Sequence record: PX441839.1
Reading direction: 5' to 3' (one strand)
DNA from: a phage
Length of the DNA stretch: 64,000 nucleotides
Notes under the pieces: model-generated
The model's input: only the letters and a program-made list of their open reading frames with translations
The model's database searches: none
Told to the model about the DNA's origin: nothing
Shown here: positions 20,495-57,698 of the stretch, piece after piece
Numbering within the stretch: position 1 is the stretch's first letter
Layout of the letters: each line of letters opens with the position of its first letter
Program-made: the position numbers and the translations under genes

Positions 20495-20833
20495 ATGATT
20501 CTTGATATAATGGCAGTTCTTAAAGCACTCTGGGGATTTGCCACTTTTATTTTGTTGGGGATTCTCAAAATTACGTATTCTGACTTCAAAAAGATGCAGG
20601 AACGTCAGGACACTCTTGAGAAAGATATTATCCGACTCAGGAGTGAGATGGTTACTAAGGACAGTCTTGATGATATTTTTGATCGGAAGATGAAACATAT
20701 TCAAGACACTATCCAGGATATACGTGGGGATCTCGCAGACATGCGAGGAGAAACAAAGGACGAGGTTACTGCCTTACGTAATGAAATCAGGACTGTTTTG
20801 AATGTAGTTTTGGAGAGAAGCAACAGACAATGA
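20495..20833 (+). CDS. small membrane protein with coiled-coil
   Basis: 112 aa; N-terminal hydrophobic helix (LKALWGFATFILLGILKI) then charged helical region. Confidence 0.5.
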   Translation: MILDIMAVLKALWGFATFILLGILKITYSDFKKMQERQDTLEKDIIRLRSEMVTKDSLDDIFDRKMKHIQDTIQDIRGDLADMRGETKDEVTALRNEIRTVLNVVLERSNRQ

Positions 20834-21291
20834 TATCTTCCCTGTTCTACGGGATGTGCTTCCTGATTGTCCTTATGAACCCTTGCGTTCGTACAAAAAT
20901 AATGGCGGGGCTATGCCTCGCCTATATTGTAATAGAGAATATGATGCTTTGGTACACAATAACCAATGTTATCCATTTCGATATTACCCTTTATCATACC
21001 CTCGGGTGGATATTGGATTCAACTCTTTTGTTTGCAGTGGGTTGTGTTTTAAGAGGAAAGAGGCAGATCCTCATCATAGCTTCCGCAATACCCCTTATGG
21101 TGTCTCAAGTGTTAGCAATCCAATATCCTTCTATGTTCCCACCTGATGTATACCAGTGGGTAATTAAAGATGCTCACATGTATTTTATTGAGATGTTTAT
21201 CTTCGCTCATTCTTGGAAAGACAACACAGTAAAAGAGTGGTTAAAGACAGGAACAGTGTTGGGCCTTGTTGTTGCTGCACATTTAGTTTGA
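20830..21291 (+). CDS. multi-pass membrane protein
   Basis: 153 aa, about 4 hydrophobic segments; ATGA overlap with the previous gene. Confidence 0.5.
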   Translation: MISSLFYGMCFLIVLMNPCVRTKIMAGLCLAYIVIENMMLWYTITNVIHFDITLYHTLGWILDSTLLFAVGCVLRGKRQILIIASAIPLMVSQVLAIQYPSMFPPDVYQWVIKDAHMYFIEMFIFAHSWKDNTVKEWLKTGTVLGLVVAAHLV

Positions 21292-21310
21292 TTGATATTA
21301 CAGGTGGTAT

Positions 21311-21583
21311 ATGTTAAAATTCCTAAAGGACTTGATCCGGTCCACAACCGACCCTGCCAAGGCTTCACATACAAAGCTTTGGTCGAATATCGGTATGGCT
21401 TCAATGACTGCGGTGTTTCTCTGGTATGGTTTCAAAGGAACCCTCCCTGAGTGGTATTTGTGGGTTTATGCCCCTTCCGTTGCTGCACCACAGTTATTTA
21501 GCAAACTGATCGCCCTTCGTTGGGGAATAAACCCCAACCAGAAGAATACAGAAGATGAATTAAAAGGAGATCCTCGTGGCTGA
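21311..21583 (+). CDS. small membrane protein
   Basis: 90 aa with a hydrophobic segment (IGMASMTAVFLWYGF); AGGTGG RBS. Confidence 0.45.
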   Translation: MLKFLKDLIRSTTDPAKASHTKLWSNIGMASMTAVFLWYGFKGTLPEWYLWVYAPSVAAPQLFSKLIALRWGINPNQKNTEDELKGDPRG

Positions 21584-29728: not shown

Positions 29729-30112
29729 TTATTTTCTCCCCTTCTTACGGTGATAAACTCCACGTTTGGACAGAGGAATTTCCTCTGCATCTCTTCCATC
29801 AACACCATCTTCACCAGGTTCACCTTGAGGACCCATTGGACCTGCTGGTCCCATTGGCCCCATAGGTCCTACAGGTCCAGTGACAACACGAATGTCTTTA
29901 GGTTTGTACAGAGAATAACCCAAGCATCCAAACCAACCGATAAGTGTAATTACGCTCGGAGGCAAAAGGAAGAAGATAACAGTAAAGACAGAGATCATCC
30001 ACTTATTCCTGTGATCCTTCTTCCATGCGATAATTATTGGGGAAAAACTAATTGCCAATAAAATTAACAGAAAAACAAGACCGAGAGTGATGGCAGCTTC
30101 TGCAATTATCAT
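29729..30112 (-). CDS. membrane protein with C-terminal collagen-like repeat
   Basis: Two hydrophobic helices, then VTGPVGPMGPMGPAGPMGPQGEPGEDGVDG (about 9 Gly-X-Y triplets). Confidence 0.55.
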   Translation of the reverse strand: MIIAEAAITLGLVFLLILLAISFSPIIIAWKKDHRNKWMISVFTVIFFLLPPSVITLIGWFGCLGYSLYKPKDIRVVTGPVGPMGPMGPAGPMGPQGEPGEDGVDGRDAEEIPLSKRGVYHRKKGRK

Positions 30113-30390
30113 TAACGAAGACCCTCTTTGATTTTAAGTTCAATCAACCCTGCATCCAGGGTATACATGTATCCAGTGTTATCCCGAAAGTAACAAAGGA
30201 CTCCCTTGGGTTCGGATTTTCTTACTATGACCCGACCCCTTTGATAACCAGGTTGTGTTTCACAAACCTTGTACAGTTCCTGAATACGGGAAGGCAGAAT
30301 AGTATGAGAATTCTTGTACTTATCCTCACCTTCTTCCAGACACCCTGTCAAAAGTACAGAGCACAGTAGTGCAATAATTAACTTTTTCAT
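30112..30390 (-). CDS. putative lipoprotein
   Basis: Start at MKKLIIALLCSVLLTGC (signal peptide with lipobox LTGC); ATGA overlap with the upstream small ORF. Confidence 0.6.
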   Translation of the reverse strand: MKKLIIALLCSVLLTGCLEEGEDKYKNSHTILPSRIQELYKVCETQPGYQRGRVIVRKSEPKGVLCYFRDNTGYMYTLDAGLIELKIKEGLR

Positions 30391-30563
30391 GCGCAGAATG
30401 CCGCCACAATTAGTGAAAAGGGCCACACGATCCCGAAAATTACAGAGGGTCCTTTGTCAATTCTGCAAAATCGACGATAGAATAGTCGCCCTGCTCCAAC
30501 ACTGATCAGGATATAGAGTAAAGATACAAGTAACTCAAGTGCATATAATGTTAAAAAATTCAT
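30387..30563 (-). CDS. small two-helix membrane protein (not in the ORF track; holin-like topology)
   Basis: 58-aa ORF MNFLTLYALELLVSLLYILISVGAGRLFYRRFCRIDKGPSVIFGIVWPFSLIVAAFCA; AAGGA RBS; stop overlaps the lipoprotein start. Confidence 0.45.
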   Translation of the reverse strand: MNFLTLYALELLVSLLYILISVGAGRLFYRRFCRIDKGPSVIFGIVWPFSLIVAAFCA

Positions 30564-38130: not shown

Positions 38131-39258
38131 TTAATCTACACTTGCACTTATTTCAGTCGCAAGTCTAAAGCTCCCTTCGACCAAGCCAGGGATCTCCTCA
38201 ACATTGTTAATTACAACATTTGACACTCTGACAGGAGGAGAACTCGGCAGGTAATCCTCCACCTTGCTTGCCACAACATCACCGTTTGTGTTTTTGACCA
38301 CCAGTTTCGAGGCAGATCTTGATGTAGTGGTTGGAGCCTTTGTGTACGTTGTAACCTGAACAGCTTTTATCTGTTGACCACCTGGTGCTCTCCAGCTTGG
38401 GGACAGGGCTACAATTGGTGCCTTCCCTACAGTTTCAGATGCCAATGAATTCACAGCAGGGGAGTTCATAGCCCTCCCCATTGTATTTGAACCCCCATAG
38501 ACGATATCTGAAATTGTTTGTGTCGTTCCTCCAGAGAAGCTACCTATGTCAGTGACACTTTGTGTTGTTCTTGTTATTTGGGGTTCACCCAAGAACTCAA
38601 AATTCCCTTCTTCATTGTATGCAGTATACATCCTTCCAAACATTAGTGGGTTAACAGTGTCGCCAAAGGCAACTCCATCGTACAAAGCACCAGAGAACCC
38701 TATGAAAAGTCCAGTCCCAACTGGCATACGCTCTGCGAAAGTGTAAGGACCAAGCGGCCCTGCCGGGGCATCTCCGTTGAGTGAGTTCCATGTCTCAAAG
38801 CTATCTTCACTGACCTTTCTTATACACACCTCCATGTAGTTATAACCAGGGGTGTACGATGATCGCATCAGGACTGTAGATGGGTCAACCCCATTGAACT
38901 GGTTTGTAAGTATCCCCGTCCGGAGGAATCCTCTATTAAAGGGGAAGAATACCCGATACCCGAAGGTAAAGGTGGCATTCACTGGAGCTTCAAGAAGTAT
39001 CTTCCTGACATCTATGGTGAACCCACCATAATCTCCAGTGGAGCTTGTAAACCTGATTGCGAACACGGGGGATGATCCTCCACTCTGGGAGGCGGTCATA
39101 AGGGACCCCGGCAAGGTAGGTGATTTTATCATAGATATTGACACACCGAGCTTTTTTGACAGGTACTCCTCAAGACCCTTTTCATAATCGTTGCTGGAAT
39201 TATATGCGAATGGTGTCATATCCAAAAAATCTGTAAATCCGAGTATTGCCATAATCAC
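38131..39258 (-). CDS. paralog family protein, copy 3 (375 aa)
   Basis: Shares N-terminus (MIMAILGF) and internal motifs (YMEVCIRKVS; AYNEEGNFEFLG) with the 39449 and 40752 genes. Confidence 0.6.
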   Translation of the reverse strand: MIMAILGFTDFLDMTPFAYNSSNDYEKGLEEYLSKKLGVSISMIKSPTLPGSLMTASQSGGSSPVFAIRFTSSTGDYGGFTIDVRKILLEAPVNATFTFGYRVFFPFNRGFLRTGILTNQFNGVDPSTVLMRSSYTPGYNYMEVCIRKVSEDSFETWNSLNGDAPAGPLGPYTFAERMPVGTGLFIGFSGALYDGVAFGDTVNPLMFGRMYTAYNEEGNFEFLGEPQITRTTQSVTDIGSFSGGTTQTISDIVYGGSNTMGRAMNSPAVNSLASETVGKAPIVALSPSWRAPGGQQIKAVQVTTYTKAPTTTSRSASKLVVKNTNGDVVASKVEDYLPSSPPVRVSNVVINNVEEIPGLVEGSFRLATEISASVD

Positions 39259-39452
39259 TCCTTAATTGGTGATGTTAAGACTTCTGTTACCACGAGTAGC
39301 GTGTTCTGTGCCAACTCAGGTTGAAGGAGAACCTCTGTGACCACAATGCCGACATTGGCAGAAAATTGTGGTGTAATAAGAACCTCTGTTGTCACTAAAT
39401 AGACGTTGGAAAACATTGCCTGTTCCCCAACGGCGGTCATGATTTCAATCAT
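39255..39452 (-). CDS. leader microprotein with 3 x 17-aa tandem repeats (VVTEVL type)
   Basis: MIEIMTAVG leader, then three 17-aa units with core V(V/T)TEVL; stop overlaps the start of the 38131 gene (ATGA). Confidence 0.55.
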   Translation of the reverse strand: MIEIMTAVGEQAMFSNVYLVTTEVLITPQFSANVGIVVTEVLLQPELAQNTLLVVTEVLTSPIKE

Positions 39453-40525
39453 ACATCCACAACCCTCTCGCTGGAAGCAACGAACGAAAGACCTGCCAAC
39501 TGGTCCCTTCCTGAAAGTGGAATAGTCACCTTGCTAACCCCACGGGCGTAATCTTGACTATCGTTCTTTATGCTTTTCGATTTCAAAAGCTCACCATCAG
39601 AACTTACTATCTGAGATGTGATATCCACAGACTTGCCTTGTACACTTGATCTTCCAACTAGTGTAGAGCTAACCGCAGCAATCTTCACAGAAGGGTCAAG
39701 AGTTGAAAGATTAGCTTTTGCCACTGCTGGGTTTACTAGGGTTGTTGGACCCAGCAATCCTCCCAAGTGATTATAGTTTAATCTGTTGGTAAGTGTTGCC
39801 TCCCCGTTTGGGTTATCACCTCCAGATACCAGTGTGTTTGGTAATGTTCTTACCGAGCAAGTTCCCAAACGCTCCTCAAGACCTTCCTTGTTGAATGCCC
39901 AATATTGGTCCATAAATGTTACCTCCACTTGAGTGGTTGGTAACTTATTGGTGGTAAGAGGGGACCAATTATACCCAGTGCCTATTACCATTTGCTGGGG
40001 AAGAGAGTTTACAGAATCGTTTTGCAAGACAGTGCCGTCAACCCAAGCCCTTAGTCGATATGAGGTTGCAGAAACTTTACTTACTTCAAGCTCCACGTAC
40101 ACTGATCTTTCTGATCCCGAGTACCTCTGCATAGGGTAATCCAAAACTGCTGCCAAAGATCCAGAGGTAAACCCTCCCAACCTTAGGTCTGCGGTCATAT
40201 ATTCTTGGGGGATGATTACTCGGCTTCCGACCGTAAGGGTATCGCCAACATCCACAATCCAAGGCCCAATCGACGTCACAGTTGCTGCGTATGATGTCAT
40301 CGTCGGAAAGAATGACACCTTATTTTGACCAACGGTTCCGTACATGGTGCCGGATGAAATGTAGTAATCGAATCTACCTCCGTTTGAACCCACAGGGGTT
40401 TTTGGAATACAAGCGGCATTTAATGTTTGTAGCAGCAGGAGCGCATCGTTACCTTGTATTTGCCCCTTGTTAGGGAATTCCCTGAGGGAACCGAACCCAT
40501 TGATGTGAAAAATCATACAACTCAC
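39449..40525 (-). CDS. paralog family protein, copy 2 (358 aa)
   Basis: MSCMIFHINGF; DVGDTLTVG; YVELEVSKVS; RAWVDG; FMDQYWAFNKEGLEERLG; homologous to the 40752 gene. Confidence 0.6.
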   Translation of the reverse strand: MSCMIFHINGFGSLREFPNKGQIQGNDALLLLQTLNAACIPKTPVGSNGGRFDYYISSGTMYGTVGQNKVSFFPTMTSYAATVTSIGPWIVDVGDTLTVGSRVIIPQEYMTADLRLGGFTSGSLAAVLDYPMQRYSGSERSVYVELEVSKVSATSYRLRAWVDGTVLQNDSVNSLPQQMVIGTGYNWSPLTTNKLPTTQVEVTFMDQYWAFNKEGLEERLGTCSVRTLPNTLVSGGDNPNGEATLTNRLNYNHLGGLLGPTTLVNPAVAKANLSTLDPSVKIAAVSSTLVGRSSVQGKSVDITSQIVSSDGELLKSKSIKNDSQDYARGVSKVTIPLSGRDQLAGLSFVASSERVVDV

Positions 40526-40713
40526 CCCACAGTATAAAGATATTCTTGAACAAAAGCCGCTGAGTTAATCTCTGACGGGACATAATACAGATATTCTTGA
40601 ACAAAAGCAACAGTATCTGTATTTGTTGGGGAGTAGTACAGGTACTCCTGAACAAAAGTCACAATCTCAGGATTAATGGCTCCACTTCCAGAGGCTGTCA
40701 TCATCTCCAACAT
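40522..40713 (-). CDS. leader microprotein with 3 x 17-aa tandem repeats (FVQEYLY type)
   Basis: MLEMMTASG leader, then (V/A)(T/A)FVQEYLY x3 at 51-nt period; GAGGTAA RBS; stop overlaps the 39449 gene start. Confidence 0.55.
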   Translation of the reverse strand: MLEMMTASGSGAINPEIVTFVQEYLYYSPTNTDTVAFVQEYLYYVPSEINSAAFVQEYLYTVG

Positions 40714-40719
40714 AGCATT

Positions 40720-40745
40720 ACCTCAATAAGACGCCCCGAAGGGCG
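40720..40745 (-). terminator. intra-cassette hairpin (possible attenuator)
   Basis: ACGCCC-cgaa-GGGCGT hairpin between the 40752 gene stop and the 40713 start. Confidence 0.4.
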
Positions 40746-40751
40746 TGTGAC

Positions 40752-41804
40752 TTAAACATTCGGTTCTTTTTCCCTTGAAGATACGAAACTGTAGTTTGTA
40801 AGTTCAGACATTGGTTTATCACTCACATCCAAAACTGTTTCACAGAAACCTCCACGATAATCAGGGGTTACAGATTCCTTTGTGGTTGAGGATACTACCT
40901 TTCCAGTGTGATCCAGAATCTGACTGGTCACCGGAGCAGGAACTCCCGTTACCGACGACTTACCTACAGTTGTCATCTTAAAAGCCTTAATCCTTAGGTT
41001 AGGGTTCGGGCTTGGCATATTCACCTTTTGTACCATAGGGTCGCGAAGGGTTATCGGGTCCTGAGACCCTTTCGAGAGATCCCAATTAACCCTTGCGGTC
41101 CCCCAAGTGGACCCACCAGGGTTTTCACTTCCTGCCGTTAATGTTCTTGGGACTTGGGTCACGGTTGCTCTCCCAATTCTCTCATCCCTTCCCTCAGTAT
41201 TAAATGCAAAATAGATATCTTGGAAATAAAAACTCCCCGCTGGGTTGGTGTTGGATTTCCAAAGAACACTTGTTCCAATAGCACCATAGTTGAACAGTTC
41301 CGACCCTTGACCCGCTTTCCTCAAAAGACCGTTTACCCACATCTCGTAAGTGTATGGGTAATCAGGATGATCTGTTTTTCTAACTACCATCTCCACATAC
41401 GGATTAGCTGTCCTATCTGTGTGGTCACAAACCATGGTTAATGACGACAGATACCCATTTGAAAATCCACCAACCGCAGGTAATGAATTTGCGTGAGTAG
41501 ATGTCATACCCAATCCACAACCAACCGTCAAAGCGTCCCCAACATCAATAATTATGGATGGGAGGTGAATATTCAAACATCCGATCCCTGATGGACCCAA
41601 TACGTTCATTGACAACCTGTTGGTCCCAGGTAAAGATAGATTAGGGCTAGAACTCTGGTATGCATAATTTGCAAAAGTTGCACCTTGCTTTGGGCTTTGT
41701 GGGTGCCCGTACCGCAGAGAAGTTAAAACGGTTTGGATATCGTTAGTGCTTACCAAGTTAGTTAATGGCTCCCACACAGAAAACCCCTGAATTCCGATAA
41801 TCAT
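40752..41804 (-). CDS. paralog family protein, copy 1 (350 aa)
   Basis: MIIGIQGF; DVGDALTVG; YVEMVVRKT; MWVNG; FQDIYFAFNTEGRDERIG. Confidence 0.6.
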   Translation of the reverse strand: MIIGIQGFSVWEPLTNLVSTNDIQTVLTSLRYGHPQSPKQGATFANYAYQSSSPNLSLPGTNRLSMNVLGPSGIGCLNIHLPSIIIDVGDALTVGCGLGMTSTHANSLPAVGGFSNGYLSSLTMVCDHTDRTANPYVEMVVRKTDHPDYPYTYEMWVNGLLRKAGQGSELFNYGAIGTSVLWKSNTNPAGSFYFQDIYFAFNTEGRDERIGRATVTQVPRTLTAGSENPGGSTWGTARVNWDLSKGSQDPITLRDPMVQKVNMPSPNPNLRIKAFKMTTVGKSSVTGVPAPVTSQILDHTGKVVSSTTKESVTPDYRGGFCETVLDVSDKPMSELTNYSFVSSREKEPNV

Positions 41805-42001
41805 ACACTTTCCTCTATAACGTATAAATATTCCGGCATTAAACCTATCGTACTTACATCGGGAATGATGGAGTACAAGTATTCCGGCATAATGCCTATA
41901 AGATTTACCTCTGGGGCCAGAATATAAAGATATTCCGGCATAAGACCTATGACCTCAACTGGGGCCTTTCTTACCCCTGATGCCGTCATCAATTCTATCA
42001 T
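41801..42001 (-). CDS. leader microprotein with 3 x 17-aa tandem repeats (MPEYLY type)
   Basis: MIELMTASG leader, then IG(L/I)MPEYLY x3; stop overlaps the 40752 gene start (ATGA). Confidence 0.55.
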   Translation of the reverse strand: MIELMTASGVRKAPVEVIGLMPEYLYILAPEVNLIGIMPEYLYSIIPDVSTIGLMPEYLYVIEESV

Positions 42002-42013
42002 ACATACCCCCGA

Positions 42014-42850
42014 TTACACTTTTCTTGCATTGCTGGGAAATTCTCGTTTCTCCGTATCACCCCATATGATCCTTACAGCAGATGCACCTGGGGCATTTGA
42101 AGATCCGTGTCCAGACCCACCTCCGAAGTTTCCTCCTCGTCTACCACTCTGGTCTTCGCCTCCAGACCCACCTCTTGCACTTGTGGGGATTTGACCACCC
42201 CTGCCCCCTGCACCATTGACACCTACTCCGTAAATACCCACTCCACCACCGCCACCTGAGTTTTCACCAGATGACCCTGAGAAGTAATATCCTACAGATC
42301 CTCCACCCCCACCACCTTCCCCGCTACCTCCAGCGGAGTAATTTGTAGAAGGGGGGTATGCATTACCTCCGTCCCCTCCCTTTCCTATATACCCTGCTGC
42401 ACCTCCAGCGCCAGCACATCTTTTCCTGTCATTGGCGGAGGAGTTACTCCCTCCAGCACCACCTTTGTTTATTACCGCACCACCCATATCAGGATACGAT
42501 CCTGTGTAAGGTTCCGGTCCAGAACCAAACCCTGCGACAACCAGCGGAGTTCCATCCCGAAAAAGTCCAACAACAGTTGTCCCATCATCGCTGCCTCTTG
42601 TGTGGACCTGTAGAGTCTCCCCAGGTAGCACAGGTATGTGGTTTCTCCATACTAGGTCTCCCCCAGCACCACCTCTACGTGGGAGAGGATCTGTTTGAGG
42701 CATCCCTCCTTGACCGACACACACTACGCTAATATCTTCCACATTGTTTGGAACAACCCACAACTTAGGTGCAGTAGTGAGGGAAGTGTACTCCACATTC
42801 CCTAGTTTAACTGGAGCTTTAGTTTTTACCGTCGCTGTCATTAATTCTAA
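42014..42850 (-). CDS. Gly-rich protein with the shared N-terminal leader
   Basis: Start at internal ATG (MLELMTATVKTKAPV) with AAGAGGAAA RBS; C-terminal 60% is poly-Gly-rich (GGAGGSNSS...GGSGEGGGGGGSVGYYFSGSSGENSGGGGGVGIYG...). Confidence 0.55.
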   Translation of the reverse strand, partial: LELMTATVKTKAPVKLGNVEYTSLTTAPKLWVVPNNVEDISVVCVGQGGMPQTDPLPRRGGAGGDLVWRNHIPVLPGETLQVHTRGSDDGTTVVGLFRDGTPLVVAGFGSGPEPYTGSYPDMGGAVINKGGAGGSNSSANDRKRCAGAGGAAGYIGKGGDGGNAYPPSTNYSAGGSGEGGGGGGSVGYYFSGSSGENSGGGGGVGIYGVGVNGAGGRGGQIPTSARGGSGGEDQSGRRGGNFGGGSGHGSSNAPGASAVRIIWGDTEKREFPSNARKV

Positions 42851-44228: not shown

Positions 44229-44998
44229 CAAAGTTTAGCAGGTTCGTTAATCCTGCCCACACCATTACGTGTTGCCATACGGTTTCCCGTAGGATCGGAC
44301 TATATCACCACCCTTTTCAGGGTGCTCCCCATTTCGACGCCACTTGGTCGCCTACGCCTCTCGGCTAGTCTCTGAACGTTAAGACCACGTATACTTCTCG
44401 GAAATATGCTTCCACTGCCGACGCTGCTTAATGGCTCGTACTGTTGCATAGGGGAATCCCATGTCGCGTACCTCTGCCTGGCTCATTCCGCTTTCAAGAA
44501 GCTGGCAAATGGTCATCACTTCGTCTTCTGTGAGGGCACTATTAGCATTGTTGATACCTTCCGCGCTGCGACAGTTGTGGCGATAGGCGTTCTCTATGTT
44601 TTTGCCTCTCGTAACCCACTGTAGGTTGTCTTTGTGGTTATTCCTTTTATCGGGCCACTTGTGATCAACCTCTGGAAGATTGTTCGGATTGGGAACAAAA
44701 CATTCTGCCACCAAAACATGGACCGCCTTTGTCGTCGCCTTTTTGTTAAGGTAAAGACTGACAATTGCATACCCTCTTCCATTATCAACATGCTTCATAG
44801 GTTTACCTCGACGACCTATAATGGTCCCGTCCTCGTAAACTTTATATCCGAAATAGTCTTTGTACTCCACGTAGTCCTCTTCGCTGCTGATTAACATAGC
44901 TGCACTTTAGTTTATTATTAACCCAGTGTCAACCTTAGCCTTCCAGCAATTAAAGGAGTTTTCGATGTAGGTTGCCCTACAAAGCCACAATGTTACTT
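44229..44998 (-). mobile_element. group I-like intron in the DNA polymerase gene, carrying an HNH homing endonuclease ORF
   Basis: About 770 nt separate the exon 1 end (...VRRIIYYH) from exon 2 (DEYQLEVP), splitting motif C. It contains an HNH ORF and an 80-nt core conserved with the second intron. Boundaries approximate. Confidence 0.55.
44379..44897 (-). CDS. HNH homing endonuclease
   Basis: 172 aa; HVLVAECFVPNPNNLPEVDHKWPDKRNNHKDNLQWVTRGKN is an HNH-type motif; lies between the polymerase fragments. Confidence 0.75.
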   Translation of the reverse strand: MLISSEEDYVEYKDYFGYKVYEDGTIIGRRGKPMKHVDNGRGYAIVSLYLNKKATTKAVHVLVAECFVPNPNNLPEVDHKWPDKRNNHKDNLQWVTRGKNIENAYRHNCRSAEGINNANSALTEDEVMTICQLLESGMSQAEVRDMGFPYATVRAIKQRRQWKHISEKYTWS

Positions 44999-51214: not shown

Positions 51215-51700
51215 TTAGAAAGGTGGTTGGTCATCCCAATCACTGTCGTCTTCCACAACCTCAGGTGTGACTTTAGATTCTTCCGGTTTGGAATCCTCTT
51301 TAATCTCCATCTGCTGTGGTTCAATGTCATCTTCATCATCAGGGATATCGTCTTCCTTGAGATCAGATAGACCTTTCTCCGAGTTCTCTTGTGATAATGG
51401 CTGCATTTTACCAACAGCCTTCTCAACATAATGTTCAGAACTTGGATCATCTTCTGGATGAATCGCATACCACTCTCGAAGAGTTTCATATGGACTGTCC
51501 AAGAAGCCTTCTGGCGGTTCTAAGTAATCACCTGTGTCAATATCATAGAACACAGGGAACTTCCCGCTACGCCCGTGCTTACGGTCATCTAGAATTACAA
51601 ACCAAGAGGTATTTCGCTCTTTCATTGGCAACTCTGGATCTTTGTTACGCTCAATACCCACCATAAAATAAGTGTTCTTTTTGTCCAGTGGGTTCGCTAC
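51215..51700 (-). CDS. primase-helicase, exon 2 (helicase C-terminus with acidic tail)
   Basis: FMVGIERN ... GRSGKFPVFYDIDTGDYLE and acidic C-terminus ending DWDDQPPF resemble the T7 gp4 C-terminal region (from memory); exon start approximate. Confidence 0.55.
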   Translation of the reverse strand, partial: VANPLDKKNTYFMVGIERNKDPELPMKERNTSWFVILDDRKHGRSGKFPVFYDIDTGDYLEPPEGFLDSPYETLREWYAIHPEDDPSSEHYVEKAVGKMQPLSQENSEKGLSDLKEDDIPDDEDDIEPQQMEIKEDSKPEESKVTPEVVEDDSDWDDQPPF

Positions 51701-52532
51701 TCCCACCCGGTGCGATTCCTGGCACCCGCCTACACTTTCGTGCAGGAACAGACTATATCATCACCTTTCGGTGCTCTCCGCTTCGGGACCGCTTGGCCCT
51801 AACGCCTTTCGGCTAGTCGTTGAGGTTTTTGCACGTTCTGGGTACATCTTCCAAGAATACAAGTCCCCGACCTCTTTCCAATCCCTTCGGGAGCGGATAT
51901 TGAGGACTGCTGACCTTGTTACAGGTAATCCACTATTATCGACAATCTTCTGCGCTGACCAACCCTCAGAAAGAAGCCTACAAATTTTGTGAACCTCTGC
52001 CTCTGTGACTTTGGACCTGTAATGATCCTCTCCCCTCTTTGGAAGCTTATTGGCAATAGAGTGCTCAAGATTTTGCCTACCAGTGACCCATTCCAGGTCA
52101 TCTTTGTGGTTAAATTCCTTGCCTCTTTTATGATTAACTTCGGGTAAGTTCAGCGGGTTTGGAATATAAGTCTTAGCTACCAACCTGTGAACATACTCGG
52201 GCGTTCTCTTACCTTTAAGTATCACATTGACAAAATAATACCCTGTACTCTTGTTTCGAATGTTCTTCAAAAATTTATTTGTGAACAAACTAAATACCTT
52301 GCCATCTTCTGTTACAAGATATTTACTACCCTCTTCTATTGGTATCATGTTTCCCCCTTCTTTATTCTAACAAAAGGGTATAATACACAAAAGAATTTGA
52401 ATATGCAACTTACCTGCTGATTACCCAATCCTCTGTCTTTTCAAACATTCACGCCCACCCTTACGGGTCACGTTGTAGTGCCAGAGGCTCTAAGGGCTTC
52501 CCAGCAATTCAAAGAGTTTTACATGCGCTAAA
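51701..52532 (-). mobile_element. group I-like intron in the primase-helicase gene, carrying an HNH homing endonuclease ORF
   Basis: Separates helicase motif H4 (...GSRAMMR) from its continuation; contains an HNH ORF and a core segment homologous to 44300-44380. Confidence 0.55.
51761..52348 (-). CDS. HNH homing endonuclease
   Basis: HRLVAKTYIPNPLNLPEVNHKRGKEFNHKDDLEWVTGRQN, paralogous to the 44379 HNH; the C-terminal tail of the track ORF probably reads through intron RNA core. Confidence 0.65.
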   Translation of the reverse strand: MIPIEEGSKYLVTEDGKVFSLFTNKFLKNIRNKSTGYYFVNVILKGKRTPEYVHRLVAKTYIPNPLNLPEVNHKRGKEFNHKDDLEWVTGRQNLEHSIANKLPKRGEDHYRSKVTEAEVHKICRLLSEGWSAQKIVDNSGLPVTRSAVLNIRSRRDWKEVGDLYSWKMYPERAKTSTTSRKALGPSGPEAESTER

Positions 52533-54071
52533 TCAACGCATCATCGCACGAGAACCTGCAAACTGTGCCGACTGAACCTGACCACCAAATTCATGGGGTT
52601 TTCCAGATTCCGGTTTGTTCAAGTGACAGAAACAATAATATGTGAAACCTAAGTCCTTTGCAAGGATAGAGATCTCATCTGAAAATCGTTCCAGTTCTGT
52701 GTTAGCATCACCTGGTGACATACCTTGCACAAGTCGAGTAATTGGGTCGATAATAATATCTTCACAACCCTCCACCAAGACTGCGTGGCGGATTGCACCC
52801 TTCACCTCGTCCCATACTGCACGACCATAGTTGGAATAATAAATGATCTTATCGCCAACATAATCTGTAGCTTGGATTAGTTCTTCATGCTTGAAGTATC
52901 CACGTTGTCCTTCAAAGATTTCGTTACCCCAAACATCTCGGTAAGTCCCATCTTCCTGAGGGATCATTACCTTTTCTGCGTTAATGAAGTCCTTGTGGTA
53001 AATTTTACCTGCAACCTTCTTACAAGTGATGTCGTTCTCTTCTTCAAACTTAAAGATACCGACTTTCTTCTTGTCTTTTTCAATGATGTGCTCGACAAGT
53101 TGGTTAACAAACTCGGACTTACCGATCTTAACACCTGCACCAAGGAAGTATCCCTCTCCTTTACGACGACCCAGTGTCAACTTGGTCATGGTAGGCCAAG
53201 GCCATGATTTACCAAGTTTTGGAATCTCGTGCGCTTTGTCTCGAAATTGTGCATACGTAGAGAAACCTTCTGGTACATAGTCCTTTGGCTTCATTGCTGC
53301 CCAGAATAATTGGTCAGCCATTCCCTTGATGTACATGTCGCATGGGTCCATGTCCTCTGGGATGTCAACAACCTTCATCTGAGGAATTACTGAGTAAACC
53401 GCTGCAACAGCATCCTTACCTTTCATAATCCCCTTGGCCTTTTCTGCCTCCGTTGCACGATCAGCATCAAAAGCTACAATAATCTCTTCAAACTTGTTCA
53501 GAAGCTTGTAGTTGTTCTTCTGAGCTAGGTTCTGCACGGCATTAGATGTGCCGTTGGAAATTGAGACCACCGTGAAGTTTGGTTTACGTGCATTTCCATC
53601 CTTAGATTTATACTTTTCTCGGAGAACCTGCCACAACACTGCCGCATCGTACTCGCCCTCCGTGATAAAAATCATGCGACGTGAGGATTTATTTGCACCC
53701 TCCAGACCAAACAGGTCACAAGCGACAGATTGGAAACCAATCGTACTAAAGTGGCCCTTCTGTTGCTTAGGAATGGTCAGATCTCGCTTCTTAAAGCCGA
53801 CGATCTTACCCTCCAGTGTGTAGGGAAAATAGTGCGCCTCTGGTGTCATCCCATCCTTGGCAGACAGCTTAGTCCTGATTCCAAAGCGCTCTGCCGTCTT
53901 CTGATCGATACCTCGCTCAGGGATGGCTTTAAATGGGTAAGTTTTTACATCTTCTACTGTTTCTTCAACCTTGTTCATACGACCACCCCCTACTGAACGA
54001 GATACCGATGCCTTCGGGTTCTTGTACCCCGTCTTATAACCACCAAACAGACCTTCACCTAATGTGCTCAC
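52533..54071 (-). CDS. primase-helicase (T7 gp4-like), exon 1
   Basis: GTG start with AAGGAG RBS; TOPRIM-like ITEGEYDA; helicase Walker A GAGVKIGKSEF; DIIIDPITRL; ends within the H4-like region. Confidence 0.75.
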   Translation of the reverse strand: MSTLGEGLFGGYKTGYKNPKASVSRSVGGGRMNKVEETVEDVKTYPFKAIPERGIDQKTAERFGIRTKLSAKDGMTPEAHYFPYTLEGKIVGFKKRDLTIPKQQKGHFSTIGFQSVACDLFGLEGANKSSRRMIFITEGEYDAAVLWQVLREKYKSKDGNARKPNFTVVSISNGTSNAVQNLAQKNNYKLLNKFEEIIVAFDADRATEAEKAKGIMKGKDAVAAVYSVIPQMKVVDIPEDMDPCDMYIKGMADQLFWAAMKPKDYVPEGFSTYAQFRDKAHEIPKLGKSWPWPTMTKLTLGRRKGEGYFLGAGVKIGKSEFVNQLVEHIIEKDKKKVGIFKFEEENDITCKKVAGKIYHKDFINAEKVMIPQEDGTYRDVWGNEIFEGQRGYFKHEELIQATDYVGDKIIYYSNYGRAVWDEVKGAIRHAVLVEGCEDIIIDPITRLVQGMSPGDANTELERFSDEISILAKDLGFTYYCFCHLNKPESGKPHEFGGQVQSAQFAGSRAMMR

Positions 54072-55585: not shown

Positions 55586-56998
55586 TTAACCTCCAAAAAT
55601 TTGTGGGAATGTTCTTTTATAAAAATCAGCCACTTGCTGGTCAACAATAATATCTTTCACCCGCAACGGCTTAGACAAACGCAGACCCTCTACACTTCGG
55701 GCACGAGACAGCATAACATATGTCTGACCTGCTGTAAATGCCCCGTATCCAAGGTCAATATTAACCTTGTCTAAGGTTAACCCTTGACTCTTGTGTCCGG
55801 TAATAGCATAACCCAGTTTGAGTGGAAACTGCAAGAACTTTCCGATCTCCTTATCCACAAGGCGGGTTGCCTCTACCTTCTTCTTGACGGTTTTCTTTGT
55901 CCCGTCAGGCATATCAACTTCCTCTTCCACCTCTTTCCAATAGGTCTCTGGAACCTGAATGTTGTTTTTCCACTCATTTCTTCCCAGCGTCACAGGGACA
56001 CCGTCTACATTAACAACTACGAATGTACGGGCAATACGGGATACAATTCCAACAGTCCCATTAACATATTGTGGCTCACCCTCCCCCTCTTTGGGGTTGT
56101 GGTTTACAGTAATCATTACCTTTAGCCCAACCTTCAAGCTTAAGGTTTCCTGTACCGGACGGTCAGGGAACTCTCCACTAATATGAGCTTGGAACTCATG
56201 AGCCTCTGCCTTAATTTTGGCAAACTCACGAGCATTGATTGCCTCTGCCATCTTGTTTGTTGTGGTCAAGGTAACAGCATCCGCAAGAGGCGCTTTCCCA
56301 AAGCAACAGTTCTTATTGAGGAACTCTACAGCTTCGTTTAAGTTCTTACCAACACGGATGTTGTTCAGATGGTTAGCATACACAGGGTCTGCCTGTCGGT
56401 GAACCTTCGGCAGATAGCAGTTCGTAAAGTTTAAAGAGTTCCATACATCACTTTCGAAAGGGATCTCATCTCCATATAGGCGACGGAATTCCGCAATTTC
56501 GTTACGAACCAGAACAGGCTTAATCTGGAACCCATCCCCAAAAGCGATGACCTGTAGGCCACCAAATGGCTTGTTAACTTTCCGATGGTGTCGGAGTTTC
56601 ATATCCATCTCTTTCAACTTATCTCTCCGCACCATAGAGATCTCATCGATAACAAGAGCTTCTAGGGCATCGGAGGATAACAGCATCGCCGCCTTCCGAG
56701 ATTTCGCCTTGTAGTCCTCGTCTGTCGTGATGCCAAAAGTAAGTCCAAAAGCCTTGTGGCAAGACATCCCCGCAATATTAAGTGCAGCAATCCCCGTTGG
56801 GGCAACGAACAAAAAACTCTCCCCAAAGAACTCCCTGAGAGACGAGATCATCATACTTTTACCAGAACCACCTGGTCCAGTGATGAACACATTCTCCCCT
56901 GCCATAATAGCTTCCATCCCTGCATCATTTCCGATTACTGTTTTACTCACCAATATACTCCTCGATTTCGTCAGGGTAAAGGACGTATGTCTTTCCAT
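55586..56998 (-). CDS. SF1B DNA helicase (Dda/PIF1/RecD-like)
   Basis: Walker A ITGPGGSGKS, Walker B VIDEISMV, AFGDGFQIKPV, ITGHKSQGLT, YVMLSRAR, in canonical order. Confidence 0.8.
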   Translation of the reverse strand: MERHTSFTLTKSRSILVSKTVIGNDAGMEAIMAGENVFITGPGGSGKSMMISSLREFFGESFLFVAPTGIAALNIAGMSCHKAFGLTFGITTDEDYKAKSRKAAMLLSSDALEALVIDEISMVRRDKLKEMDMKLRHHRKVNKPFGGLQVIAFGDGFQIKPVLVRNEIAEFRRLYGDEIPFESDVWNSLNFTNCYLPKVHRQADPVYANHLNNIRVGKNLNEAVEFLNKNCCFGKAPLADAVTLTTTNKMAEAINAREFAKIKAEAHEFQAHISGEFPDRPVQETLSLKVGLKVMITVNHNPKEGEGEPQYVNGTVGIVSRIARTFVVVNVDGVPVTLGRNEWKNNIQVPETYWKEVEEEVDMPDGTKKTVKKKVEATRLVDKEIGKFLQFPLKLGYAITGHKSQGLTLDKVNIDLGYGAFTAGQTYVMLSRARSVEGLRLSKPLRVKDIIVDQQVADFYKRTFPQIFGG

Positions 56999-57125
56999 CC
57001 ACTAAGGATTCACATAAGTAACTTTGAATGAATCCATCGTGAAAATCTAAAACCTTAAATACATGACCCGCCTTTGGGTGGTCGAGTCTGTCACTATAAT
57101 CCGCCGTCAGATACACTTTCTTCAT
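56943..57125 (-). CDS. hypothetical small protein
   Basis: Start set at internal Met (MKKVYLTADY) to avoid overlapping the hydrolase gene. Confidence 0.35.
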   Translation of the reverse strand: MKKVYLTADYSDRLDHPKAGHVFKVLDFHDGFIQSYLCESLVDGKTYVLYPDEIEEYIGE

Positions 57126-57640
57126 TTTACCCTCTCTTTGTAAAATATGTGGTTTCCGATTATTACTGTTCTTACCATACTGGCTATCCAATAGGGCCTG
57201 ATCTTCTTTGTATGGTAATGCGTAGAACCATTCGTGAAATCATAAGATGAGTATACAGCAGGGTACTTGTGCAATGCAAGAATAAATTTGGATAATTTCT
57301 TTGCCTTCTCCCAAGTAGCTTTATCCCTGATCCGGTAATTCTTGCCGGAGTTTGCCCAAGAGAACTGGGAATCTTGATAAACAACACCTTTTACGGAATC
57401 TGGATATCTGTCCTTATCTTTTCTGTTGAGAGTTACAAAACCAACAGCGAGCATACCTCTCTCACCTTCACCAGATGCCTCTTTAAACATGTTACATGCA
57501 AGGGCATTGACTGCATTATCATTCTTCTTGCAGACGTGGACAACGGGTGGGTTTTTCGGTGCGTTCTCTTTAGCCAAAGCCGAGGCGGTGGATAGAGACA
57601 ACGTACAGGCCAAAAGAATGGCGGTTATCCGCTTCTTCAT
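57122..57640 (-). CDS. secreted cell wall hydrolase (SleB/CwlJ-like)
   Basis: Sec-type signal peptide MKKRITAILLACTLSLSTASALA; FKEASGEGERGMLAVGFVTLNR, YQDSQFSW, THYH, IGNHIFYKE match SleB-family motifs (from memory). Confidence 0.7.
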   Translation of the reverse strand: MKKRITAILLACTLSLSTASALAKENAPKNPPVVHVCKKNDNAVNALACNMFKEASGEGERGMLAVGFVTLNRKDKDRYPDSVKGVVYQDSQFSWANSGKNYRIRDKATWEKAKKLSKFILALHKYPAVYSSYDFTNGSTHYHTKKIRPYWIASMVRTVIIGNHIFYKERVK

Positions 57641-57698
57641 GAGGACTCCTAAAATAATAAAGGCCCAGTGTACTTAACTGGGCCAGTGTGTCAATAGC

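Follow-up and report, generated by a model that had tools for sequence, protein, structure and literature searches.

A SleB-like cell wall hydrolase with a predicted Sec signal peptide, encoded in the replication module of a Vequintavirinae phage

A gene for a putative cell wall hydrolase lies among replication genes in phage sequence record PX441839.1, and this raises the question of whether its product is the endolysin of the phage, an exported accessory to lysis or an enzyme that acts on the wall early in infection. The window analysed here is the whole stretch of 64,000 nucleotides, in which the open reading frame (ORF) occupies positions 57122-57640 of the minus strand, begins with ATG and encodes 172 amino acids. 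The original prediction had assigned the product to the SleB/CwlJ family, had proposed a cleavable Sec signal peptide with an AxA site and, by implication, holin-independent export, and had called the position of the gene in an early-region block atypical for an endolysin, with a secreted endolysin or an early-acting wall-remodelling enzyme as the suggested roles.

A Pfam scan of the ORF revealed a match to Hydrolase_2 (PF07486) at residues 57-167 (57140-57472, minus strand), covering the full profile from 1 to 100 with E = 4.8e-23 and 82.1 bits at a cut-off of 27. The ORF also matched PHROG 938, labelled 'endolysin' (E = 1.5e-26), and phmmer against the PDB returned SleB only (4FET, 4F55), with KEASGE of the query aligned with the catalytic motif GESRGE of SleB. 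The AlphaFold2 model of the protein had a mean pLDDT of 88.2, with residues 31-172 mostly at or above 95 and the folded domain comprising residues ~35-170. Foldseek of this model against the PDB returned only the catalytic domains of SleB (4F55/4FET; probability 1.00, target-normalised TM-score 0.75-0.80). With Pfam, PHROG 938, phmmer and Foldseek all in agreement, the SleB/CwlJ assignment was borne out, and the ORF is a real gene of this family, far above chance. The predicted catalytic glutamate, Glu54 (codon at 57479-57481, minus strand), was aligned to the first Glu of GESRGE and was found to be invariant in all 39 homologues and in 10/10 sequences of a smaller comparison.

Bacillus SleB (4FET, 4F55) shares the catalytic fold and the Glu motif with the phage protein at 24% identity, and it, too, is synthesised with a signal sequence. 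The phage protein differs from it in having neither an N-terminal PG_binding_1 domain nor a YpeB-type partner; Hydrolase_2 was the sole domain detected at E ≤ 1 in the Pfam scan, and where the two-domain Bacillus enzyme has its peptidoglycan-binding part ahead of the catalytic one, residues 1-34 of the phage protein consist of predicted signal peptide and linker. Bacillus SleB requires muramic-δ-lactam, which Gram-negative peptidoglycan does not contain, and Enterobacterales make no cortex peptidoglycan. Because the host is without muramic-δ-lactam, substrate recognition must differ from that of Bacillus SleB.

The window was found to be collinear with positions 52.5-114.4 kb of Salmonella phage SSBI34 at 84.8% nucleotide identity and is, by this similarity, Vequintavirinae phage DNA. 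The SleB-like protein was 90.7% identical to that of SSBI34 and at most 59% identical to all others, and therefore represents a distinct lineage; identity to Seunavirus, Certrevirus and Vequintavirus proteins was 50-54% across residues 24-170. Similarity extended over the whole mature protein, the genome was of the Vequintavirinae type and the neighbourhood was that of the orthologue group, with RNA ligase on the upstream side and helicase or rIIA on the downstream side. On sequence comparison, the gene is an orthologue of CB7_83, PVP-SE1 gp243 and rV5 SleB. The RefSeq and PHROGs label for these orthologues is 'endolysin', and the hosts of the relatives are Salmonella and other Enterobacterales. 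A signal peptide, a K[ED]NAPKK linker and a single Hydrolase_2 domain are common to the protein and to CB7_83, CR3_087 (Cronobacter), PVP-SE1 gp243 and the rV5/FV3 SleB, and the Vequintavirinae SleB-like orthologues have the same Cys pair, catalytic Glu and place in the replication module. CB7_83 has been described as carrying a signal peptide and as having homologues in all Vequintavirinae genera (PMC7344957). Gene, signal peptide and position have thus all been described before for the subfamily, and, as a member of a known group, the present gene is unexceptional. Beyond the subfamily, Hydrolase_2 phage homologues were present in 1,263 phage records, including rV5-like, phi92-like, T5-like and PaP1-like phages.

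Codons 1-23 (57572-57640, minus strand) encode a predicted Sec type-I signal peptide, MKKRITAILLACTLSLSTASALA, in which n-, h- and c-regions can be laid out as MKKR / ITAILLACTLSL / STASALA, followed by KE, with an h-region of 12 residues and a KD value of 1.84 across residues 5-23. The Ala-x-Ala motif occurs twice, at residues 19-21 and 21-23; cleavage is predicted after Ala23 (ALA|KE), with an alternative site after Ala21 (ASA|LA), and the predicted mature protein has 149 amino acids, a mass of 17.1 kDa and a pI of 9.8. Position -1 was Ala in 34 of the 39 homologues, position -3 was small (A/S/V/G) in 35, and a Pro/Gly helix breaker at -8 to -4 was likewise present in 35/39. The hydrophobic core drifted among these 39 homologues, and the Ala-x-Ala site was kept across genera. 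In the AlphaFold2 model, the signal segment had a pLDDT below 65 and did not pack against the fold. Hydrophobic N-termini were found in 48 of 53 distinct viral homologues and in 37 of 39 database homologues, which suggests that export is a trait of the family. The n-h-c layout, together with the conserved -1/-3 positions and helix breaker, supports a typical cleavable Sec type-I signal with an AxA site, as had been proposed at the sequence level, and holin-independent export would be implied by it; holin-free export does not equal holin-free lysis.

Following the signal, a basic, Lys/Pro-rich linker, KENAPKNPPVV (codons 24-34; 57539-57571, minus strand), was modelled with low confidence, and its motif K[ED]NAPKKK was conserved in the homologue alignment. 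Next to it lie Cys37 (57530-57532) and Cys49 (57494-57496), spaced as Cys-x11-Cys (57494-57532, minus strand). The two cysteines co-varied perfectly, with both present in 30 sequences, neither in nine and a single one in none, and the pair was present in every Vequintavirinae and phi92-like homologue examined. Because of this perfect co-variation, a periplasmic disulfide between Cys37 and Cys49 is suggested, and the pair lends indirect support to signal cleavage and a periplasmic location. The pair is phage-specific and distinguishes the protein from Bacillus SleB.

The gene is flanked by RNA ligase and PIF1-like helicase genes, which are not the neighbours expected in a canonical lysis cassette; at a greater distance are genes for a DnaB-like helicase and a family-A DNA polymerase. 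The same arrangement, RNA ligase - SleB - small ORF - PIF1 helicase, occurs in SSBI34, L093, L096, CR9 and DU_PP_I. Among the Vequintavirinae, SleB-like genes adjoin either RNA ligase and helicase or rIIA, being directly upstream of rIIA in rV5-like and Seunavirus phages and overlapping it in FV3. Outside this subfamily, the gene is also located among early or DNA-metabolism genes in the phi92-like phage PHB05, beside the tRNA region in the T5-like phage S126 and beside DNA ligase in the Pakpunavirus C11. Location in the early-region block was therefore confirmed, with the gene inside the replication (early/middle) module; its description as atypical did not hold, since early or DNA-metabolism neighbours were found in every lineage examined and the position is the family norm. 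For the Vequintavirinae, the replication-module location has already been reported in published work.

Upstream of the gene, an AGGAG ribosome-binding site (57646-57650, minus strand) is located 5 nt before the ATG and is kept in SSBI34 and L093. It is preceded by a sigma70-like promoter candidate, TTGACA-16 nt-TACACT (57667-57694, minus strand; 10/12 matches), which was the top sigma70-like match in the region of 54.5-61 kb. Counterparts are TTGACA-N16-TATACT in SSBI34 and L093 and TTGACT-N17-TAAACT in L096. In the minus-strand block, the coding strand was enriched in strong sigma70-like sites, of which 15, this candidate included, were counted there. A terminator-like hairpin with an 8-bp stem (GGCCCAGT/ACTGGGCC) and a 7-nt loop, followed by TTTATTATTT (57652-57684, minus strand), is situated directly past the stop codon of the RNA ligase gene and overlaps the -10 box of the promoter candidate. 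Its stem is retained in SSBI34 and L093 with differing loops. In L096 the design recurs with a different stem, and other GC hairpins are present in L094 and L095. Sigma70-like promoters were assigned to early/middle genes in the CB7 paper (PMC7344957), and a literature search for time-course transcriptome data on a Vequintavirinae phage returned nothing usable. From gene position and the promoter-like motif only, we infer early or middle expression of the SleB-like gene.

On the downstream side, the ATG of a 60-amino-acid soluble ORF (MKKVYLTADY...; 56943-57125, minus strand) overlaps the TGA of the SleB-like gene as ATGA. This ORF matched phrog_14198 (E = 2.1e-12), and no TM segment was found in it; next comes the PIF1-like helicase, which starts with GTG at 56950. 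In CB7, SSBI34, L093 and L096, unlike in the present phage, the 3' end of the SleB-like gene is overlapped by an ORF of phrog_10205 encoding a protein with two TM segments (2-TM). A deletion junction was located at 57118-57132 (minus strand), where ~190-208 nt of SSBI34 (record 107151-107338) are missing, and the missing stretch encodes, in SSBI34, this 2-TM membrane protein, a holin candidate of the CB7_82 type. No phrog_10205 member was found anywhere in the 64-kb window. The 2-TM holin candidate is thus cleanly lost in this phage, a feature specific to the window, and, as the neighbouring 2-TM protein is absent here, this phage and SSBI34 form a natural with/without pair for its function.

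The SleB-like ORF was the only dedicated muralytic gene recognisable in the 64-kb window. Two groups of ORFs considered as a lysis cassette were rejected: those at 30112-30563 (a 2-TM protein and a lipoprotein, holin/spanin-like) matched only unknown-function PHROGs and, weakly, a Cor-like and an Imm-like family, and had no muralytic neighbour, and the membrane ORFs at 20495-21583 matched unknown-function PHROGs and belong to the tail-fibre module. For ORFs specific to the window, in segments without an SSBI34 alignment, the Pfam scans yielded only a weak match to HNH_3. SSBI34 also encodes a cytoplasmic T5-type M15 peptidase (Peptidase_M15_4, E = 6.7e-10) and an Rz/Rz1-like pair, the latter upstream of the large terminase and ~60 kb from the SleB-like gene; these M15 peptidase and spanin genes were seen in SSBI34, and the corresponding region of the present phage is outside the 64-kb window. 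In tblastn searches of the window with the SSBI34 2-TM protein, M15 peptidase and Rz/Rz1-like pair, nothing better than E = 0.3 was obtained. Because SSBI34 carries the M15 peptidase, there is evidence against the SleB-like gene being a sole endolysin.

The reading that we favour, at a rough probability of 0.5, is that the gene encodes an exported Vequintavirinae SleB-like muralytic enzyme that is accessory to lysis and not the only lysin. Host RNA polymerase would transcribe the gene from its own promoter, alongside early/middle and not virion genes. The precursor would cross the inner membrane via Sec, signal peptidase I would cut after Ala23, and the basic 17-kDa mature enzyme would fold in the periplasm with a Cys37-Cys49 disulfide. 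Cleavage of the glycan strands of peptidoglycan would depend on Glu54, as in SleB-type lytic transglycosylases. A muralytic enzyme would in this way be placed in the periplasm ahead of time, with its action restricted for as long as the envelope remained intact and energised, and would speed wall breakdown after the holin and a second endolysin have acted; in this phage, it would work without the adjacent 2-TM partner of most close relatives. As an active lysin exported early would be expected to cause premature lysis, the proposed restraint is an assumption.

Among known systems, Lys44 of Oenococcus phage fOg44 resembles the SleB-like enzyme in its cleavable Sec signal, predicted for the enzyme described here, by which the wall is reached without a holin. 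In the Lys44 model, the enzyme is restrained until the membrane is de-energised, and the SleB-like enzyme is presumed to be restrained likewise. It differs from Lys44 in its catalytic family, its Gram-negative host, the location of its gene outside a lysis cassette or late operon and the second endolysin of its relatives. Related in sequence are PaP1 g029, PAK_P3 gp151, C11_031 and the T5-like SleB-like proteins, which share Hydrolase_2 at 31-38% identity and a predicted exported N-terminus and are encoded among DNA-metabolism/early genes, separate from the true endolysin. The Pakpunavirus proteins differ in an N-terminal TM segment that looks uncleaved, the T5-like proteins have a shorter signal, and in both the Cys positions are different.

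The gene can be annotated confidently as a Vequintavirinae SleB-like cell wall hydrolase, with export predicted. It belongs to an under-studied family: phages with a canonical endolysin encode, outside lysis cassettes, a further muralytic enzyme that is exported. Explaining how the cell withstands an exported wall-cleaving enzyme until lysis would extend the holin/endolysin/spanin picture, and it would be relevant to enzybiotic design, since the enzyme is small, basic and, as predicted, naturally active from the periplasmic side.

A possible, if tentative, alternative to the accessory muralytic enzyme is an early wall-remodelling or auxiliary metabolic enzyme that is exported soon after infection and has no direct role in lysis; possible purposes include precursor release, cell enlargement, a superinfection-related envelope change and room for a trans-envelope structure. 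It would fit with the location of the gene in the replication/early block of four unrelated phage groups, its own sigma70-like promoter candidate, the adjacency to rIIA in rV5-like and Seunavirus phages (with overlap in FV3), the presence of another endolysin in phages with the SleB-like gene and the persistence of the gene here without its 2-TM neighbour. For PAK_P3, the cell wall hydrolase gp151 was put forward by the authors as an auxiliary gene behind the accumulation of cell-wall precursors in infected cells (PMC4933390), which points in the same direction but is a proposal only. Expression of CB7_83 alone was toxic in E. coli (a 'data not shown' statement in PMC7344957), which suits a lysin rather than a remodelling enzyme and is the sole indirect sign of muralytic activity. 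Translational coupling of the gene to the 2-TM holin-like ORF in most close relatives also argues against a role apart from lysis.

Rather unlikely, in our estimate, is a latent periplasmic cleaver of glycan strands, produced from early or middle times and no lysin by itself, that acts only on peptidoglycan pre-altered by another activity, or else an enzyme with a non-lytic early role in wall turnover or envelope remodelling. Such an enzyme might, for example, need stems trimmed by the phage M15 L-Ala-D-Glu peptidase, which would echo the need of Bacillus SleB for stem-less muramic-δ-lactam. This reading would explain why more than 1,200 phage genomes from several unrelated groups keep an exported Hydrolase_2 in early/replication modules, why a canonical endolysin co-occurs, why early export does not bring about premature host death and why loss of the neighbouring 2-TM protein is tolerated here.

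That the SleB-like protein is the principal endolysin of the phage, secreted in the manner of Lys44 of fOg44 and unleashed in the periplasm when a holin collapses the membrane potential, appears improbable. The 'endolysin' labels of its orthologues in RefSeq and PHROGs, the predicted signal peptide, the overlap of the gene, in relatives, with a class-II-holin-like 2-TM ORF and the fact that no other dedicated muralytic gene is recognisable in the 64-kb window would be in its favour. Set against it are the T5-type M15 peptidase of SSBI34, the closest relative, and the loss of the candidate holin partner in this phage. A second, canonical endolysin is moreover present in CB7, Septuagintavirus, BME3, PVP-SE1, phi92-like phages and PaP1, and in two of these phages the enzyme shown to be active is the canonical one: PVP-SE1gp146, the canonical PVP-SE1 endolysin, has reportedly been shown to be active, and in PaP1 the active endolysin g072 and the cell wall hydrolase g029 are different genes. 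BME3 and PVP-SE1 have been described in the literature as having 'two endolysins'.

A signal-anchor-release (SAR) domain would anchor the enzyme in the inner membrane in an inactive state until the membrane is depolarised, and Cys12 might then rearrange a Cys37-Cys49 cage beside Glu54, as in P1 Lyz. The protein has a 19-residue uncharged hydrophobic stretch (58% Ala/Ser/Thr) that contains Cys12, with two further cysteines shortly before the catalytic Glu, and some distant homologues (Pakpunavirus C11) have an N-terminal TM segment without an AxA site. As for SAR endolysins with pinholins (phage 21 R/S, P1 Lyz), Sec export via an N-terminal hydrophobic segment is predicted, and in relatives the SleB-like gene is paired, like phage 21 R/S, with a small, pinholin-sized 2-TM protein. 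Known SAR domains are Gly-rich and SAR endolysins have a T4-lysozyme-like fold, whereas this segment contains 0 Gly and the fold is different. Most homologues keep both the AxA signal-peptidase site and the Pro/Gly helix breaker, the N-terminus is unpacked from the domain in the AlphaFold2 model, and the 2-TM partner is absent here. Among the 39 sequences, 14 have Ser at position 12, 12 have Cys and the remaining 13 have some other residue; Cys12 is therefore not a conserved thiol. The SAR reading was judged highly unlikely. A lipoprotein anchored by a lipid at Cys12, with LLAC12 as the lipobox after the MKKR n-region (L-L-A-C being found also in SSBI34), was rejected because Cys12 alternates with Ser in homologues and a type-I cleavage site 11 residues past it is conserved, and there are only seven hydrophobic residues ahead of Cys12 and the residues preceding it often break the lipobox rule in homologues.

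A literature search for a phage member of the SleB-like family with a biochemical characterisation or a genetic test of its role returned none. By tblastn, the protein was 31% identical to the Atu_ph03 'cell wall hydrolyse', and from this match the Agrobacterium phage peptidoglycan hydrolase tested by Attai et al. 2017 may belong to the same family. The labels given by annotators to members of the SleB-like family vary between amidase, muramidase and transglycosylase.

The ORF at 57122..57640 (minus strand) encodes 172 aa from an ATG start codon, 5 nt downstream of the Shine-Dalgarno sequence AGGAG. Its product matched Pfam PF07486 (Hydrolase_2) over the entire profile with 82.1 bits (E=4.8e-23; curated cut-off, 27 bits) and PHROG 938, 'endolysin', with E=1.5e-26. 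Bacillus SleB (4FET, 4F55) was the sole match in a PDB sequence search, in which KEASGE of the query was aligned with the GESRGE motif of that enzyme. The AlphaFold2 model, computed with 39 sequences as input, was confident (mean pLDDT 88.2; mostly at least 95 over residues 31-172), and Foldseek retrieved only SleB catalytic domains from the PDB at E<=0.001, with a probability of 1.00 and target-normalised TM-scores of 0.75-0.80. Glu54 was invariant in both homologue sets (10/10 and 39/39). The Hydrolase_2 (SleB/CwlJ) assignment, as made in the original prediction, is far beyond chance.

The window was found to be collinear with positions 52.5 to 114.4 kb of Salmonella phage SSBI34 (MZ520832.1; Vequintavirinae), with 54.1 of the 64 kb aligned at 84.8% mean identity. 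The SSBI34 orthologue of the SleB-like protein is 90.7% identical, and all others are at most 59% identical. A tblastn search revealed relatives in 1,263 phage records, with homologues in every Vequintavirinae genus sampled, including PVP-SE1 (gp243), CR9, GAP31, 4MG, KB57, FV3 (rV5-like) and Mydo. The gene has a published and widely annotated orthologue: CB7_83 of phage CB7 resembles SleB, has homologues in all Vequintavirinae genera, carries a reported signal peptide and was described as toxic to E. coli upon expression, data not shown (PMC7344957, section 2.8). In the window, the upstream neighbour is an RNA ligase gene; on the other side, a 60-aa ORF (phrog_14198) adjoins with an ATGA stop/start overlap, followed by genes for a PIF1-like helicase, a DnaB-like helicase and a family-A DNA polymerase. 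This gene order is common to SSBI34, CR9, DU_PP_I and two further relatives (loci L093 and L096), and in Seunavirus and rV5-like phages rIIA lies directly downstream of the SleB-like gene. Thus, the facts of the original prediction were right, including the early-region location; the position it had called atypical is the rule for the family and already in print.

The 58-nt spacer 3' of the RNA ligase gene contains the region's best sigma70-like match (TTGACA-16 nt-TACACT, 10/12). Overlapping the -10 box of this promoter candidate is a terminator-like hairpin followed by a T-run. The design (57652-57694, minus strand) comprises the -35 box, a hairpin whose loop and 3' arm carry the -10 box, and the T-run, and recurs upstream of the gene in SSBI34 (L001 11945-12000), L093 (2445-2500) and L096 (2445-2500). 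The -10 box reads TATACT in SSBI34 and L093; L096 has another stem sequence but the same layout, and other GC hairpins are found there in the relatives L094 and L095. The window has 29 sigma70-like sites scoring at least 10/12, whereas mononucleotide shuffles gave about 12.5. Of those between 27.6 and 64 kb, 15 were on the coding (minus) strand, the majority with an exact TTGACA, and 4 on the opposite one. The CB7 authors attributed sigma70-like promoters to genes of the early/middle class and noted that such phages lack their own RNA polymerase (PMC7344957). No usable temporal transcriptome of a Vequintavirinae phage was found in the literature. The promoter candidates support early/middle transcription of the SleB-like gene, short of proof.

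At the N-terminus, MKKR is followed by ITAILLACTLSL, STASALA and then KENAPK, an n-h-c arrangement as in Sec type-I signals; Ala-x-Ala occurs at residues 19-21 and again at 21-23. The signal peptide was judged by residue conservation among homologues. The cleavage motif (A/V)-L-A | K-(E/D)-N-A is kept across Vequintavirinae genera while the hydrophobic core varies; position -1 is Ala in 34 of 39 homologues, position -3 is a small residue in 35/39, and a Pro/Gly helix breaker is present at -8..-4 in 35/39. A strongly hydrophobic N-terminus was seen in 48 of 53 distinct IMG/VR viral homologues and 37 of 39 database homologues; in some, such as that of Pakpunavirus C11, it is a TM segment without AxA. 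Export looks like a trait of the family, in line with the Sec signal and AxA site originally predicted, with cleavage itself a prediction. The mature protein would have 149 aa, a pI of 9.8 and a mass of 17.1 kDa. Cys37 and Cys49, which lie shortly before Glu54, co-vary perfectly (both in 30 sequences, neither in 9, a single one in 0); this is indirect evidence for a disulfide and, hence, suggests a periplasmic location.

With family, fold, catalytic residue, signal-type N-terminus with conserved cleavage motif and gene context established, we propose, with a probability of about 0.5, that the protein is a pre-positioned periplasmic lysin whose action is limited until the envelope is compromised. 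The gene would be transcribed from its own promoter before the late genes, the precursor exported via Sec, cut after Ala23 and closed by the Cys37-Cys49 disulfide, and Glu54 would cleave glycan strands as in SleB-type lytic transglycosylases, with the enzyme being accessory to a cytoplasmic M15 endolysin. An early remodelling or auxiliary function without a part in lysis, as proposed for the wall-degrading gene gp151 of PAK_P3 (PMC4933390), is possible at clearly lower odds. That the enzyme is the main, secreted endolysin appears doubtful. A second hydrolase is reported to be encoded elsewhere in CB7 and its relatives, resembling a T5 peptidase in the case of CB7 and phiTE and a lysozyme in the others, and the spanins adjoin the terminase (PMC7344957); Septuagintaviruses encode both an M15C peptidase and a SleB-like protein (PMC11370258), phi92-like phages have PF00959 and PF07486, and among Pseudomonas phages of the PaP1 type, endolysin activity was shown experimentally for g072, which is distinct from the cell wall hydrolase g029 (PMC3652863). 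Beyond the syntenic region, SSBI34 was found to encode a 136-aa Peptidase_M15_4 protein of the CB7_190 type (E=6.7e-10) and, directly upstream of the large terminase, an Rz/Rz1-like pair with one N-terminal TM segment and one lipobox. Neither has a counterpart in the window, as expected if they are encoded in the part of the genome outside it; within the 64 kb, no further dedicated muralytic enzyme, holin or spanin was found, and no lysis gene is named in the annotation of the corresponding part of SSBI34.

A tethered enzyme with the N-terminus as SAR domain is unlikely, because the hydrophobic segment contains zero Gly, is followed by the conserved cleavage site and is not packed on the domain in the AlphaFold2 model. 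A lipoprotein formed at Cys12 of the lipobox-like LLAC is more improbable still, since position 12 alternates between Ser (14) and Cys (12) among the 39 homologues.

CB7_82, a class II holin candidate of 65 aa with two TM segments, overlaps CB7_83 (PMC7344957). In SSBI34, a 76-aa ORF with two TM segments (L001 12519-12749), is unannotated in MZ520832.1, where a 200-nt 'gap' separates the SleB-like gene from the CDS that follows; it begins in an ATGA overlap with the SleB-like stop codon. This ORF belongs to phrog_10205 'membrane protein' and is the counterpart of the CB7_82-type holin candidate. Homologues, all of that PHROG, are present in L093 and L096, likewise overlapping the stop codon, and 3' of the gene in DU_PP_I, where a 216-aa ORF, which may be a mobile endonuclease, is inserted in between (L086 1952-2602). 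In SalP219 and L095 the place is taken by other small hydrophobic ORFs, FV3 has none, and those of CR9 and PVP-SE1 appear frameshifted: the CR9 ORF is split over two frames (L085 1962-2160), and PVP-SE1 gp244 (L084 1967-2131) has only its first four residues (MKNF) in common with the intact SalP219 ORF. These breaks may be frameshifts or sequencing errors, and could be the reason that the CB7 paper refers to CR9 as 'an exception' (PMC7344957). In the window, the ORF is cleanly deleted at 57118-57132, leaving SSBI34 107151-107338 without counterpart; the junction reads as if the 3' end of the SleB-like gene had been joined to the final codons of the missing ORF, and an ATGA overlap with the next ORF is kept. 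No phrog_10205 member was found elsewhere in the 64 kb. Given the distribution among relatives, the simpler history is that the lineage leading to this phage lost the ORF. The enzyme therefore does not strictly depend on this membrane protein, or at least not on a neighbouring copy. The loss is a minor feature peculiar to the window and could be of use in testing what the family does.

Three small membrane proteins at 20495-21583 (plus strand; phrog_5345, phrog_7451 and phrog_1322, 'membrane protein'), are flanked by a tail-fibre assembly gene and a large tail-fibre gene; the actual holin of these phages may be among them. On the minus strand, 29729-30563 holds a cluster of small envelope proteins. 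One ORF of 127 aa has a collagen-like repeat and weakly matches superinfection immunity (Imm); the second product is a lipoprotein of phrog_15849 with an LLTGC lipobox and a weak Cor-like match, and the third ORF, of 58 aa, has two TM segments. The two-TM and lipoprotein ORFs (30112-30563) were considered as a lysis pair and rejected, since they and their neighbours had only unknown, Cor-like or Imm-like family matches; the cluster looks like one for superinfection exclusion rather than a lysis cassette.

Three further segments set the window apart from SSBI34. The 3.6 kb at 38404-42026 are not alignable and overlap three ORFs of 350-375 aa (38131-39258, 39449-40525 and 40752-41804) without Pfam match. 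An 860-nt segment (51677-52536) inside the DnaB-like primase/helicase gene, whose product has 512 aa in the window versus 665 aa as annotated in SSBI34, holds most of a 195-aa ORF (51761-52348; no Pfam match) and may be an intron or mobile insertion. The segment at 44229-44998, adjoining the family-A DNA polymerase gene, contains a 172-aa ORF (44379-44897), probably a homing endonuclease, whose match to HNH_3 is weak and falls short of the Pfam cut-off.
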